IMG/VR virus record: IMGVR_UViG_2609459832_000013
Strand: one strand, 5' to 3'
Origin: a virus
Taxonomy: Duplodnaviria > Heunggongvirae > Uroviricota > Caudoviricetes
DNA length: 6,121 nucleotides
Below, piece by piece: positions 388-4,485 of the stretch (position 1 is the stretch's first letter; each line of letters opens with the position of its first letter). A program made the position numbers and the translations under genes. Below the pieces are notes generated by a model. That model was not told the origin of the DNA, ran no database searches, and saw only the letters and a list, made by a program, of their open reading frames with translations.

Positions 388-795
388 ATGGAATTTAAAG
401 ATTTACCAAAAGAAATCCAGACAATTGCTGCAACGACTCTCGGTGATAGTCTGGTGAAAATTGACCCGGCATACACCAAAAAAGAAACCATCGATAATAT
501 GATTCGTAATGTGCGCAATGCTTTTTCAGGGCTATATGGTTCTGATAATCAAAAGCAGGAAAGCGATATTGATGAACGGGTAATTTCTGTTTGCGTGAAT
601 GGTCATGTTATTTCAGCAATCAGAACAGAAACGGCAACTGTTTTTGATTATCTCTGCATGATTCAGAGTCTTGCTGATGCCATGTTTCGTTCAGTGAATT
701 TAGAAAATGATGCAAATCTGCGAGGGCGCACAATAGCACATCCATATGCACATACTTTAGGCTCTGTGGATATCAAAGATCCCACAAATCTTTAA
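388..795 (+). CDS. Hypothetical protein (135 aa), first gene of an AT-rich island
   Basis: ATG at 388 is preceded by GAGG (378-381) with a 6-nt spacer; stop TAA at 793-795. A hand count of the first 60 nt gives about 37% GC, against about 50% in flanking genes. I recognise no domain. Confidence 0.55.
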   Translation: MEFKDLPKEIQTIAATTLGDSLVKIDPAYTKKETIDNMIRNVRNAFSGLYGSDNQKQESDIDERVISVCVNGHVISAIRTETATVFDYLCMIQSLADAMFRSVNLENDANLRGRTIAHPYAHTLGSVDIKDPTNL

Positions 796-1006
796 TGAAA
801 TAGTTAACGCGAATTGTACTTGCTCTTTCAGTTGCTTTCAGAATACGCGTTGAAACTGCTGGCGGTAATTTGGTATTCCATTTATTAAAATCATGCCCGG
901 GAAAGTACTCTTCGAAAATACTTTTAACTGCAGACTCGCCTATTGAAATGCTGCTTACCATGCGATTTTGATAAAGGCATTTAGCAATAAGAGTTGATTT
1001 TAACAT
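773..1006 (-). CDS. Hypothetical protein (77 aa) on the opposite strand, convergent with and overlapping the 3' end of the 135-aa gene by 23 bp
   Basis: On the minus strand the start reads CCTCAGGAGGGTGA-ATG: a consensus AGGAGG Shine-Dalgarno with a 4-nt spacer before ATG (complement of 1004-1006); stop is the complement of 773-775. It is the only credible minus-strand gene in the window and is AT-rich like its partner. Confidence 0.5.
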   Translation of the reverse strand: MLKSTLIAKCLYQNRMVSSISIGESAVKSIFEEYFPGHDFNKWNTKLPPAVSTRILKATERASTIRVNYFIKDLWDL

Positions 1007-1313
1007 TCACCCTCCTGAGGGTTGGTAATTAAGGAGTTCTCCACGGGTGAACATCCGGCACTGACAGTTTACTGAAAGGATATATCCCTGAAAAGTCAGG
1101 GCATAACACGAAAGCGTACGGCGAAGGCCTTCACCTATGAGGCTTGTCGTTAAATTTAATTCGACCGTACGCTTCCGGTTGTGGCAATCCGCGAAATGGC
1201 GCGGCGGTAAGTATGGCGGGGTTATTCCTTCCCCGTTGAGGACACCGGGTTGTCAGGTTGACCATACGCTTAAGTGACAACCCCGCTGCAACAACCCATG
1301 TTGATTACCTTTT

Positions 1314-1353
1314 GGCGGGTATCCGTTTTTTGTTTTCCCTTGTGATACCCGCC
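1314..1353 (+). terminator. Candidate intrinsic-terminator-like hairpin: 10-bp perfect GC-rich stem with a 20-nt loop
   Basis: GGCGGGTATC (1314-1323) pairs perfectly with GATACCCGCC (1344-1353). On the + strand it is followed by CCTTTTAAAG, a short T tract only. The large loop and weak T tract make terminator function uncertain. Confidence 0.25.
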
Positions 1354-1363
1354 CCTTTTAAAG

Positions 1364-1527
1364 TGAATTTTGTGATGCGGTGAATGCGGCTCAGCGCACG
1401 CGGAACAGTTAAAACAAGGCCAGTTGACTTCCGTATTGGTTCTTATGGGTGGGTTCTCTGTATCCGGCGTTAATTGTTAACTGGTTAACGTCACCTGGAG
1501 GCACCAGGCACCGCATCACAAAATTCA
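1364..1527. repeat. Perfect 19-bp inverted repeat whose arms flank a 126-bp segment
   Basis: Left arm TGAATTTTGTGATGCGGTG (1364-1382) is the exact reverse complement of right arm CACCGCATCACAAAATTCA (1509-1527). A tandem near-copy TGAATGCGG (1381-1389) abuts the left arm. The right arm ends 6 nt before the GAGGA Shine-Dalgarno (1533-1537) of the gene starting at 1545. Confidence 0.9.
1469..1489. promoter_or_regulatory. Three direct GTTAA(C) half-site repeats, operator-like
   Basis: GTTAA at 1469-1473, 1476-1480 and 1484-1488 (spacings 7 and 8 bp), inside the segment bounded by the 19-bp inverted repeat. A near-identical two-repeat copy CGTTAATGGTTAAC lies at 360-373, upstream of the ATG at 388. 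Confidence 0.2.
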
Positions 1528-1544
1528 TTGTTGAGGACGCGATA

Positions 1545-1733
1545 ATGGAAACGTTATTACCAAACGTTAATACGTCTGAAGGTTGTTTTGAAATTGGTGT
1601 CACTATCAGTAACCCAGTATTTACTGAAGATGCCATTAACAAGAGAAAACAAGAACGGGAGCTATTAAATAAAATATGCATTGTTTCAATGCTGGCCCGT
1701 TTACGCCTGATGCAAAAAGGATGCTGGCAATGA
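1545..1733 (+). CDS. Hypothetical small protein (62 aa)
   Basis: Internal start of the 1449..1733 track ORF. ATG at 1545 is preceded by GAGGA (1533-1537) with a 7-nt spacer, whereas the ATG at 1449 has no Shine-Dalgarno and would read through the inverted repeat and GTTAA repeats. Stop TGA at 1731-1733 overlaps the next start (ATGA). Confidence 0.5.
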   Translation: METLLPNVNTSEGCFEIGVTISNPVFTEDAINKRKQERELLNKICIVSMLARLRLMQKGCWQ

Positions 1734-2013: not shown

Positions 2014-4485
2014 ATGAGTAAAGTCTTTATTTGCGCCGCCATTCCGGACGAACAGGCAATAAAGGAAGAAGGTGCAGTCGCTGTAGCCACTGCCATTGAA
2101 GCCGGCGACGAACGTCGCGCCCGTGCCAAATTTACCTGGCAATTCCTGGAGCAATATCCGGCTGCTCAGGACTGCGCTTATAAATTTCTTGTCTGCGAGG
2201 ATAAACCCGGCATGCCCCGCCCTGCCATCGACTCCTGGGATACCGAATATATGCTGGAAAACCGCTGGGATGAGGAAGGCGCTTCCTTTGTCCCGGTCGA
2301 ACCAGAATCCGATCCGATGATCGTCAATTTTGACAAGCTGTCCCTTGAAGTACAGAACGCGGTCCTGGTTAAGTTCGGTACATGTGAAAACATCACCGTT
2401 GATATGGTGATTAGCGCGCAGGAATTGTTGCAGGAAGACATGGCAACATTCGACGGACATATCGTTGAAGCGTTGATGAAAATGCCAGAAGTTAACGCCA
2501 TGTATCCGGAGCTTAAGCTGCATGCCATCGGGTGGGTTAAGCATAAATGTATTCCTGGTGCCAAATGGCCCGAAATTCAGGCAGAGATGCGCATCTGGAA
2601 AAAACGTCGCGAAGGTGAACGCAAGGAAGCCGGAAAATACACGTCTGTTGTTGATCTCGCCCGCGCCAGAGCCAATCAACAGAACACTGAAAATTCAACA
2701 GGAAAAATCAACCCGGTCATTGCTGCCACTCATCGCGAATACAAGCAGACATGGAAAACACTGGATGACGAACTGGCCTACGCTCTCTGGCCTGGTGATG
2801 TGGATGCCGGAAACATTGACGGCAGCATCCATCGCTGGGCAAAAAATGAAGTTATCGACAACGACCGCGAAGACTGGAAGCGTATCTCGGCATCAATGCG
2901 CAAACAGCCTGATGCCCTTCGCTACGACCGCCAGACTATTTTTGGCCTTGTCCGTGAACGTCCGATCGACATTCACAAAGACCCTGTGGCACTGAACAAA
3001 TACATTACTGAATACCTGACTACAAAGGGCGTGTTTGAAGATGAAGGAAGAAATCAGAGCGCAACTGATACTCTCTCGTCGCCAGTACCAGAAACTGATG
3101 CAGTGGAAACGGCAATTCCGGACAACGAAAAAACCGAATGCAAAGTGGAAGTCGAACCATCTGTAGAACGTGAGGGGCCGTTCTACTTCCTCTTCACCGA
3201 CAAGGATGGCGAAAAATACGGTCGCGCAAACAAACTTTCTGGTCTGGATAAGGCGCTGTCTGCCGGGGCTACTGAAATCACGAAAGAAGAATATTTCGCC
3301 CGCAAAAACGGTACATACTCAGGTTCACAACAAAATACTGGTGCATCTGACACGACCGCACAACCAGGGTCAGTAAAAGTTACCGCTGACGAAGTAAACA
3401 ACATTATGCAGGCAGCCAATATCAGCCAGCCTGACGCCGATGAACTGCTTGCAGTATCACGTGGTGAATTTGTTGAAGGGATTAGCGACCCGAATGATCC
3501 GAAATGGGTGAAGGGAATTGAAACCCGCGATTCTGTGAACCAGAACCAGCAAGAAACGGAACAGAACGGCCAGAAAGCGGATCAAAACAGCCCAAATACG
3601 CAACAAAACGAGCCAGAAACGAAACAATCCGAACCAGTAGCGCAACAGGAACCGGAAAAGATCTGCACCGCCTGCGGTCAGACCGGCGGCGGCAACTGCC
3701 CTGATTGTGGCGCGATGATGGGCGACGCAACATACCAGGAAACGTTCGATGACGAGAATCAGGTCGAAGTTCAGGAAGACAATTCGGAGAAAATGGAAGG
3801 CGCTGAACATCCACACAAGGAGAATGCTGGCAGCGCTCAGGACCACGCCAGCGATAGTGAAACTGGCGAGACGGCAGATCCCTTAATTGCGGTGAACAGT
3901 CATCACATTATCACATCCACCAGCAGAGTGTGGACTCACCTGTCGGTCGACCTTGAAACGATGGGAACAAATCCTGATGCACCAATCAACTCTATTGGCG
4001 GTAAATTCTTTGACCCGACAACCGGAGAGATGGGGCCGGAATTCAGCAAAGCTATCGATCTGGAAACATCTGGCGGAATCATCGACCGGAAAACAATAAA
4101 GTGGTGGGCGAAGCGATCACGCGAAGCGCAATCTGCCATTTTTACCGATGAAATCCCGTTAGATGACGCTCTACTGCAATTACGGGAATTTATCAACGAA
4201 AACTCCGGCGAAAGCTTTGTCCAGATCTGGGGAAATGGAGCCAACTTCGACAATGTGATTTTACGCCGTTCATATGAACGGCAGGGGATCCCCTGCCCGT
4301 GGCGTTACTACAACGATCGCGATGTGCGCACAATTGTTGAACTGGGAAATTCCATTGGCTTTGATGTCAGAATGGCTATTCCATTCGAAGGTGTACCCCA
4401 CAATGCACTTGATGATGCACGTCACCAGGCAAAACAAGTTTCAGCAATCTGGCAAAAACTGATCCCAAGTCAGGCTGATTTTTAA
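2014..4485 (+). CDS. Large prophage exonuclease (823 aa): RecE-like (exonuclease VIII-like) non-catalytic scaffold fused to a C-terminal DnaQ-like DEDDh 3'-5' exonuclease domain
   Basis: Single 2472-nt ORF with TGAGG upstream of ATG 2014. The C-terminal ~180 aa carry the three DEDDh motifs: LSVDLETMG (3940-3966), WGNGANFD (4228-4251) and HNALDDARH (4399-4425). A Q/N/E-rich linker (~3535-3660) precedes a C-x2-C-x7-C-x2-C zinc ribbon (3664-3708). The central segment (ASRGEFVEGISDPNDPKWVKG, CxxC region) resembles my recollection of E. coli Rac RecE; this is not verified by alignment. Confidence 0.9.
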   Translation: MSKVFICAAIPDEQAIKEEGAVAVATAIEAGDERRARAKFTWQFLEQYPAAQDCAYKFLVCEDKPGMPRPAIDSWDTEYMLENRWDEEGASFVPVEPESDPMIVNFDKLSLEVQNAVLVKFGTCENITVDMVISAQELLQEDMATFDGHIVEALMKMPEVNAMYPELKLHAIGWVKHKCIPGAKWPEIQAEMRIWKKRREGERKEAGKYTSVVDLARARANQQNTENSTGKINPVIAATHREYKQTWKTLDDELAYALWPGDVDAGNIDGSIHRWAKNEVIDNDREDWKRISASMRKQPDALRYDRQTIFGLVRERPIDIHKDPVALNKYITEYLTTKGVFEDEGRNQSATDTLSSPVPETDAVETAIPDNEKTECKVEVEPSVEREGPFYFLFTDKDGEKYGRANKLSGLDKALSAGATEITKEEYFARKNGTYSGSQQNTGASDTTAQPGSVKVTADEVNNIMQAANISQPDADELLAVSRGEFVEGISDPNDPKWVKGIETRDSVNQNQQETEQNGQKADQNSPNTQQNEPETKQSEPVAQQEPEKICTACGQTGGGNCPDCGAMMGDATYQETFDDENQVEVQEDNSEKMEGAEHPHKENAGSAQDHASDSETGETADPLIAVNSHHIITSTSRVWTHLSVDLETMGTNPDAPINSIGGKFFDPTTGEMGPEFSKAIDLETSGGIIDRKTIKWWAKRSREAQSAIFTDEIPLDDALLQLREFINENSGESFVQIWGNGANFDNVILRRSYERQGIPCPWRYYNDRDVRTIVELGNSIGFDVRMAIPFEGVPHNALDDARHQAKQVSAIWQKLIPSQADF

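Follow-up and report, generated by a model that had tools for sequence, protein, structure and literature searches.

What occupies a gap of some 540 bp that has no long open reading frame (ORF), yet lies inside a gene-dense phage operon, and on which strand does it act? The gap in question spans positions 1007–1544 of a 6,121-nucleotide stretch of DNA (the window) from a tailed-phage record of IMG/VR, IMGVR_UViG_2609459832_000013. An initial annotation, made from the letters of the sequence, had marked it as a candidate structured leader or small RNA. It offered two layouts, a minus-strand leader of an adjacent 77-aa gene and a plus-strand small RNA antisense to that leader. Our computational analysis leaves us confident that we are dealing with a Qin-like lambdoid prophage and its early-left dicBF operon, and that the gap is the non-coding RNA cassette of this operon, acting on the plus strand. 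The dicF–dicB cell-division-inhibitor operon is a locus type already known from Escherichia coli; the small-RNA allele and the junction domain found here appear to be undescribed in Rfam and in the literature searched.

Identity of the Locus and Folding of the Gap

Window positions 1019–1544 align with the ydfC–dicB intergenic region of E. coli K-12 as a homologous segment, with flanks ~95% identical, and megablast places 950–1600 beside dicB in 4730 of 5426 complete E. coli genomes. The gene directly after the gap is dicB:

1545–1733, plus strand: dicB coding sequence (Pfam DicB PF05358, 136 bits; RefSeq annotation of near-identical loci)

The description of the region as ORF-poor holds, the longest ORF in 1007–1408 having at most 49 aa, and its description as GC-richer holds mildly (49.8% vs 46.4% for the whole window). 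The region folds more stably than its dinucleotide shuffles, with z-scores of -3.44 for 1019–1360 and -6.11 for 1355–1560 on the plus strand and -3.17 for 1007–1360 on the minus strand. Both strands thus fold better than shuffles, and energy by itself cannot choose between them. All stems and palindromes that had been listed for the region are present and perfectly complementary:

1112–1121/1165–1174: 10-bp stem, AAGCGTACGG/CCGTACGCTT
1189–1193/1200–1204: 5-bp GC stem
1247–1255/1275–1283: 9-bp stem
1314–1323/1344–1353: 10-bp stem
1123–1132: palindrome GAAGGCCTTC
1078–1087: palindrome GGATATATCC

In the alignment neither palindrome is kept as such in K-12 (GGATATTTCC and GAGGTAGCTG), and the two give no signal. 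The strongest repeat had not been listed; it is a 19-nt perfect inverted repeat at 1364–1382/1509–1527. A search of Rfam gives no match in the window at gathering thresholds, and in 950–1600, at E<=10, only a sub-threshold one to STnc100, which is discussed with the dicB leader.

The proposal of a non-coding structured RNA is borne out. The cassette consists of four modules, each preserved by compensatory change: an upstream long-range helix (A), a four-way junction (B), a hairpin at the DicF position (C) and a leader preceding dicB (D). Among 71 related sequences, the share with the window base amounts to 0.96 across the junction, 0.52 across the spacer that follows it, 0.58 in the hairpin, 0.82 in the leader and 1.00 between the ribosome site and the start codon. 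With this profile, high in junction and leader and low in spacer and hairpin, the dicF position looks like a swap cassette between conserved modules.

A Conserved Four-Way Junction

The most conserved of the four modules is the junction domain, with the following elements:

1178–1292, plus strand: four-way junction of 115 nt (alignment A3, 70 distinct sequences)
1178–1185/1285–1292, plus strand: closing helix, GUUGUGGC/GCUGCAAC
1189–1193/1200–1204, plus strand: hairpin H1, invariant and hence uninformative
1215–1221/1231–1237, plus strand: hairpin H2, sequence-variable
1247–1255/1275–1283, plus strand: hairpin H3, with a conserved 19-nt loop
1211–1216 (GUAUGG) with 1262–1267 (CCAUAC, in the H3 loop), plus strand: candidate pseudoknot

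A covariance check had been suggested for the region, and compensatory changes are indeed found in its stems across homologs. In alignment A3, 93.7% of the alignment cells assigned to the junction are paired, compared with 37–63% in slid controls, and 10 pairs are changed on both sides, compared with 3.0 ± 1.1 in shuffles (0/500). Three pairs of the closing helix illustrate the pattern, occurring as UG 40, UA 26 and CG 3; as GU 47, GC 19 and UA 3; and as CG 55, UA 7 and UG 6, so that G–U pairs predominate at two of them. Hairpin H2 is swapped for other self-complementary sequences (CUGGGG/CUCCAG, CAGGGG/CCCCUG, CAGGUG/CACCUG, CUGGG/CCCAG), and five pairs of H3 are altered on both sides, e.g., GGGUAACCA/UGGUUACCC in Izhakiella. 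In the candidate pseudoknot, C at the second position is matched by G at the partner position in every one of the 71 sequences that have it; this C–G variant is found in the P1 lineage and in one Qin-like locus, and U–G and G–U intermediates are also seen.

These data favor the plus strand. The common G–U pairs of the conserved helices would become A–C mismatches on the minus strand, which is not supported as the folded strand; together with the pseudoknot covariation, this leads us to read the junction on the plus strand. A covariance model built from the junction (R1) scores 151.9 bits in the window and 87.5 bits in phage P1, and the domain is without any match in Rfam.

The predicted processed RNA (1172–1360) folds into the junction plus the DicF-position hairpin, its minimum-energy structure being the same as its centroid structure. 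We consider it most likely that the junction would serve as a stable, factor-binding 5′ body of the long RNA form, a modelled role that fits its conservation, its pseudoknot and its constant position ahead of a terminator.

The Upstream Helix

Two features precede the junction:

1019–1101, plus strand: upstream untranslated segment, shared with K-12 Qin, where it directly follows ydfC
1102–1125/1160–1183, plus strand: long-range helix of 22 pairs with bulges (minimum-energy fold), a predicted RNase III-type substrate

The untranslated segment lacks, at about 1041–1049, 29 bp between CACGGGTGA direct repeats that are present in K-12 and in strain ESC818. Its K-12 counterpart (positions 2090–2212 of locus L002) opens a 40-codon ORF with a GTG start behind an AAGGAG site. 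Whereas K-12 has this ORF open, ESC818 has a stop codon within it and the 29-bp deletion shortens it in the window, so that it is not conserved as coding sequence.

The first stem of the list above (1112–1121/1165–1174) is the core of the 22-pair helix, and the palindrome GAAGGCCTTC falls within its variable apical insert (1126–1159). Across 32 locus variants the helix arms vary in sequence yet stay complementary, as in GCGCACGG/CCGTGCGC, GCGTACGG/CCGTACGC (the window), GAGAGCATT/AGTGCTCTC and AAGAGCATTCC/GGAATGCTCTT, while the inserts between them measure 29–130 nt or more. Experiments in K-12 show that the operon transcript is the source of DicF, with the 5′ end of a 190-nt species produced by RNase III and that of the 53-nt form by RNase E; no internal promoter was found (PMC10448788). 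Counted back in the alignment from the 3′ end of K-12 DicF, 190 nt lead to window positions 1172–1177, within the 3′ arm of the helix. The 5′ strand of the junction closing helix overlaps this same arm, positions 1177–1183 being engaged in the long helix. The two helices share bases and are thus mutually exclusive, and RNase III cleavage should, on this model, switch the long helix to the junction fold.

In phage cdtI (locus L008) and in loci L145, L149, L151 and L153, the 3′ arm of the long helix resembles boxA (GTGCTCTCAGCG, ATGCTCTTTCCG, GTGCUCUCUUCG); it lies 10–20 nt ahead of the junction, pairs with CACAACGATGAGAGCA 100–200 nt upstream and might in addition bind NusB/NusE. A nut-like boxA/boxB arrangement was considered and set aside: the boxA-like TGCTCTYT of the cdtI-type loci is this helix arm and is degenerate in the window. 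The helix insert of L153, L151 and L050 holds a stretch that resembles a tRNA T-arm (GGTTCAATTCCTGCC...ACCGC), and ARAGORN finds no tRNA or tRNA remnant within the helix insert of the Erwinia and Izhakiella loci.

A Divergent Hairpin at the DicF Position

Between junction and leader lie a spacer and a hairpin:

1293–1313, plus strand: variable A/U-rich spacer, ACCCAUGUUGAUUACCUUUU
1314–1358, plus strand: hairpin at the DicF position, with stem GGCGGGUAUC/GAUACCCGCC and a 20-nt U/C-rich loop CGUUUUUUGUUUUCCCUUGU, followed by CCUUUU

Of the two layouts first offered, a plus-strand small RNA ending at the 1314–1353 hairpin is the better reading, since this hairpin sits exactly at the dicF position of the dicBF operon. 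The annotated K-12 dicF (53 nt) aligns to window 1309–1354, and its RNase E-made 5′ end falls in the spacer equivalent to 1293–1313. By analogy, we regard the window spacer as a candidate single-stranded entry site for RNase E that would release a short hairpin RNA. Judged by sequence, the element 1314–1358 is a divergent DicF-locus allele, putative both as a small-RNA body and as a partial intrinsic terminator.

The divergence is considerable. The Rfam DicF model (RF00039, threshold 48 bits) returns nothing at E<=10 in 950–1600; it gives 76.7 bits for the K-12 control and 41.1 bits, below threshold, for the Rac-SA53 variant. Hairpins of the window type occur in 158 of 5426 E. coli genomes, versus 3954 for canonical DicF; carriers include ESC818, O121 RM8352 and O55:H7 TB182A. 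At least nine hairpin sequence classes follow the junction, each with a U-run:

canonical DicF
window type
short form retaining the DicF 5′ seed
GGUGG/CCACC-compensated form
cdtI/Stx2c type
L035
L088
L138
long forms burying a ribosome site and ATG
P1 type

The long forms are found in L050, L149, L151 and L153 (Trabulsiella, Erwinia, Izhakiella and a viral contig), ~100–160 nt past the junction, and hide a ribosome site and ATG (e.g., CCAGGAGGAGCGAAGATAATGTTC) in their stem; they look like terminators that also mask a translation start.

With respect to targets, the window allele would differ from canonical DicF. The DicF 5′ seed UUUCUGGUGA, used for xylR, pykA and manX, is not found in window 1293–1313. 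Pairing of the loop with the ftsZ start region reaches -22.8 kcal/mol for K-12 DicF (5.6% of shuffles as good) and -19.5 kcal/mol for allele L035 (3.4% of shuffles), which has a perfect 11-nt match to GGAGAGAAACU. The window loop reaches -14.5 kcal/mol, a value matched by 57% of shuffles, and we therefore reject ftsZ as a target of this hairpin. Duplex energies of whole RNAs with ftsZ ignore internal structure and are uninformative.

It could accordingly be asked whether the 1314–1353 hairpin is a dead dicF allele, that is, a decayed or weak terminator devoid of any trans-acting role. The hairpin has lost both DicF seeds and the ftsZ match, its U-run comprises only four U's, and loop length differs among its relatives. 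However, five sequence variants and 158 genomes retain the perfect 10-bp stem together with a GUUUU(U)CCC loop core, and other alleles at the site keep C/U-rich loops, L035 matching the ftsZ ribosome site better than DicF does. The C/U-rich loops and the L035 match suggest seed swapping and not decay, and we consider a dead allele improbable.

A Helix-Closed Leader Ahead of dicB

The remaining module is the leader of dicB:

1362–1529, plus strand: helix-closed leader, with a 19–21-bp perfect helix 1362–1382/1509–1529 (the z-score of -6.11 given above for 1355–1560 covers it)
1386–1401, 1466–1492 and 1494–1508, plus strand: inner leader hairpins, around a variable centre at 1412–1450
1533–1537, plus strand: dicB ribosome site, GAGGA

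A structured leader had thus been rightly suspected in the region, except that it belongs to dicB on the plus strand and not to the 77-aa gene. It ends a few bases ahead of the dicB ribosome site, and between this site and the start codon all 71 related sequences agree without exception. In the consensus fold of the leader seven pairs are changed on both sides, and the G–U pairs are readable on the plus strand only. So long a perfect helix, immediately ahead of a toxic gene's ribosome site, suggests control by RNase III or at the level of translation; by analogy with the lambda N leader, the helix is likely to be a second RNase III site. The dicB start codon lies inside a 7-bp hairpin (1541–1547/1552–1558) formed with codons 3–5.

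The leader gives the only Rfam hit at E<=10 in 950–1600, the match to STnc100 (33.7 bits, E = 1.3e-05, gathering score 47). The same leader element is found, at 33–44 bits and so likewise below the gathering score, directly before kilR in Rac-SA53 and a Shigella Stx phage and before tciA in P1, P7 and D6.

Proposed Processing of the Cassette

We propose the following pathway. The early-operon transcript would fold the 22-pair helix 1102–1125/1160–1183, which RNase III would cut to leave a 5′ end near 1172–1177. The cut would free GUUGUGGC (1178–1185) to pair with GCUGCAAC (1285–1292) and so close the pseudoknotted four-way junction, giving an RNA of ~187 nt that ends at the 1314–1353 hairpin and its U-run. 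The 3′ end could be set by intrinsic termination of part of the transcripts or else by cleavage of read-through RNA within helix 1362–1382/1509–1529. RNase E could then cut the spacer 1293–1313 and release a hairpin RNA of roughly 50–65 nt, whose U/C-rich loop would act as a pairing seed with targets different from those of canonical DicF. Read-through RNA would carry the helix-closed leader and then dicB, so that the cassette would set the amount of the cell-division inhibitor.

Several points weigh against this picture. All cleavage sites of the window allele are transferred from K-12 by alignment. The hairpin stem of 10–12 bp is followed by CCUUUU, with its four U's on the plus strand only, where relatives have five; with a 20-nt loop and so short a U-run, the hairpin may terminate weakly, and a simple terminator scan does not call it because of the loop. 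Given the missing Rfam DicF match and the lack of a predicted target, the small-RNA function of this allele is putative only. The covariation counts come from pattern-retrieved sequences that are related by descent, with kinship uncorrected, and the search pattern fixed eleven bases on each side of the junction domain. Finally, no junction is present in the Rac-SA53 prophage, where the RNase III-type helix leads directly into a DicF-like hairpin and then the kilR leader; this indicates that the junction is dispensable for making the hairpin RNA.

Distribution and Possible Role of the Junction

The junction is not confined to dicBF loci. In blastn searches, window 1178–1296 occurs independently in phage genomes, at ~92% identity in Stx2c-converting phages, phage cdtI, 2H10 and others, and at ~77% in P1, P7, D6, SJ46 and RCS47; P1 positions 68739–68833 align to window 1189–1285 with 77.6% identity. 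According to the same searches, cdtI, the Stx2c phages and P1 have it in a single place per genome. Pattern scans recover 126 junction copies in viral contigs and, among genome contigs, find it also in E. albertii, E. ruysiae, Citrobacter, Trabulsiella, Erwinia tracheiphila and Izhakiella. It is carried by another 510 records of plasmids as well, most of them ~85–115 kb long and non-mobilizable, as expected of P1-like phage-plasmids.

Its surroundings differ between phages. In P1 (AF234172), the junction begins ~45 nt past the C1-controlled ban promoters, ahead of a strong terminator and an operon of ~4 kb; in cdtI it lies in the leader after cI. In Rac-SA53 (locus L156, 1040–1215) it looks precisely excised between GGTTGT and AACGACATTG. 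On the minus strand of the cdtI locus (L008), Rfam C4 antisense RNA (68.4 bits, 40–127) and isrK (60 bits, 152–228) match above threshold, both situated beyond cro.

An alternative to a factor-binding RNA body is that 1178–1292 is a cis-acting transcription-elongation element, a functional analogue of HK022 put or a sensor, which would let RNA polymerase pass the small-RNA terminator and those beyond it and so transcribe dicB and the remaining early genes. The junction always stands upstream of a hairpin with a U-run, whatever the sequence of this hairpin; in P1 it lies between the ban promoters and the strong terminator described above; in cdtI/Stx2c-type phages it stands in the leader of the early-left operon, downstream of which no N-like protein is seen; and its loops, branch point and pseudoknot are conserved far beyond the needs of a mere processing scaffold. 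The put RNA has ~70 nt and two stem-loops and is present in two copies, putL and putR (PMC9378689). Both it and the junction are cis-encoded structured RNAs of an early phage operon, upstream of terminators and with no evident N protein; the junction, however, has 115 nt, four helices and a pseudoknot, and is present in one copy per phage genome instead of one per early operon. It shares neither sequence nor structure homology with putL/putR, and model R1 gives only noise in HK022 (7.5 bits, E = 2.8, at a non-put position), so that homology was rejected. Moreover, in Qin-like loci the junction lies ~1 kb from the promoter, Rac-like loci have the same layout without it, and no alternative pairing with the variable terminators is evident. 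We regard an elongation element as unlikely.

A broader form of the same idea, which we offer as a speculation with rather poor odds, is that the junction represents a new class of phage cis-regulatory RNA common to Qin-like, cdtI/Stx2c-type and P1-like phages of Enterobacterales. Its binding partner would be RNA polymerase or some other conserved host factor, and it would control whether transcription passes interchangeable small-RNA terminators to reach toxic early genes. If this were true, DicF would be one of many swappable seed hairpins on a common platform.

The Minus Strand and Short Reading Frames

The layout that makes the region a long 5′ leader for the 77-aa gene on the minus strand, antisense to a plus-strand RNA in the manner of a type I toxin–antitoxin system, has several points in its favor. 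A good ribosome site (GGAGG) stands 6 nt ahead of the ATG of the ORF, whose product belongs to phage protein family phrog_10348; the minus strand too folds better than shuffles, as given above; and any plus-strand RNA would be antisense to such a leader. The proposed promoter hexamers, TTGCCA and TCGAAT with a 17-nt spacer, are present as described, but they fail a lax sigma-70 consensus scan. The gene is missing in K-12, in 140 of 142 junction-bearing loci and in 67 of 69 dicB loci, all of which retain the region; gene and structured region are therefore co-inherited in just 2/142 and 2/69, respectively, unlike the partners of a type I system. The 77-aa protein is not hydrophobic (mean hydropathy -0.13, best 19-aa window 0.59) and matches no Pfam family, the plus-strand RNAs are sense parts of the operon transcript, and both the G–U pairs of the conserved helices and the U-run after the hairpin fit the plus strand only. 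We consider this layout very improbable.

Equally remote is a short conserved protein-coding ORF as the cause of the region's conservation: ORFs of 26–49 aa occur on both strands and the K-12 upstream segment has the 40-codon ORF with its AAGGAG site, but that ORF is broken by the deletion and the stop codon noted above, single-base indels are frequent inside the conserved part (H2 CCCCG vs CCCCCG), the ORFs 1137–1277 (plus) and 1131–1280 (minus) have no Pfam match, frames are not conserved, and the changes follow pairwise compensation and not a codon-like pattern.

Relation to Known Phage RNAs

The closest known system is DicF/dicBF of Qin (RF00039; Faubladier 1990 as cited in PMC10448788; also PMC5069750). 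The window shares with it the operon position between ydfC and dicB, the upstream RNase III-type helix, the GGCGG/CCGCC stem base, the U-run at the same place and the dicB leader. It differs in that the hairpin loop and 5′ tail are replaced and two genes are inserted after ydfC.

STnc100 (RF02076), a small RNA encoded by prophages in Salmonella and E. coli, is related to PasD (bioRxiv 10.64898/2026.05.13.724894). Window 1366–1522 aligns to positions 21–154 of the 206 in its model, including the closing helix and the CCUGGAGGCACCAGG hairpin. STnc100, however, is a free-standing small RNA of the late region, whereas the window element forms an internal leader immediately upstream of a toxic gene. 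The Pas small RNAs (PasA–D) were rejected as counterparts of the cassette, as they sit in late/structural regions and not at the dicBF locus.

In phage lambda, an RNase III-sensitive hairpin in the N leader of the early-left operon precedes the ribosome site of an early gene that is sensitive to dose. The dicB leader is analogous in that its long helix, too, closely precedes a ribosome site and could plausibly be a point of control by RNase III; the two have no sequence relation, and the window is without nut site or N protein.

In the P1 record (AF234172), the label 'dicF-like region' covers the junction and names a sequence similarity only, with no structure or function. The P1 junction directly follows the ban promoters and not an RNase III helix, and it is succeeded by a hairpin with a U-run unrelated to DicF.

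Gene Context

The gene order of the window is ydfC, a 135-aa gene, the 77-aa gene, the studied gap, dicB, a DUF1482 gene, a 3′–5′ exonuclease gene, xis and int. The genes ahead of the gap are:

147–365: ydfC, upstream of the insertion
388–795, plus strand: 135-aa gene, phrog_1363
773–1006, minus strand: 77-aa gene, phrog_10348

Relative to K-12 Qin, the 135-aa and 77-aa genes form an insertion after ydfC. They converge, with a 23-bp overlap (773–795). Rac-SA53 has a similarly placed gene pair, rac11 and rac10, and rac10 is likewise 77 aa long and on the minus strand. The window also contains an intact 823-aa ORF at 2014–4485, annotated in RefSeq relatives as a 3′–5′ exonuclease; at its position K-12 Qin has only the ydfE pseudogene, interrupted by IS2. 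The locus of Shigella flexneri SFBU1023 (L142) bears a decayed cassette that has lost both junction hairpin H1 and the dicB start and whose DicF hairpin is disrupted; it is an example of locus erosion.

Significance for Prophage Biology

Through DicF, one of the bacterial small RNAs that have been known longest, prophages are linked to the cell division and metabolism of their hosts. The present analysis describes the dicF position as a swap site with at least nine hairpins, some of which lose ftsZ targeting while one gains a better match. Strains annotated as DicF-less may therefore carry another regulator at the same site, the window allele alone being present in ~3% of complete E. coli genomes. 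The 190-nt long form of K-12 contains a domain more conserved than DicF itself, and its presence in P1 and in further lambdoid phages of several genera suggests that this junction has a separate function. The same helix-closed leader stands ahead of three toxic genes, dicB, kilR and tciA, which suggests a common phage mode of dosing their products.

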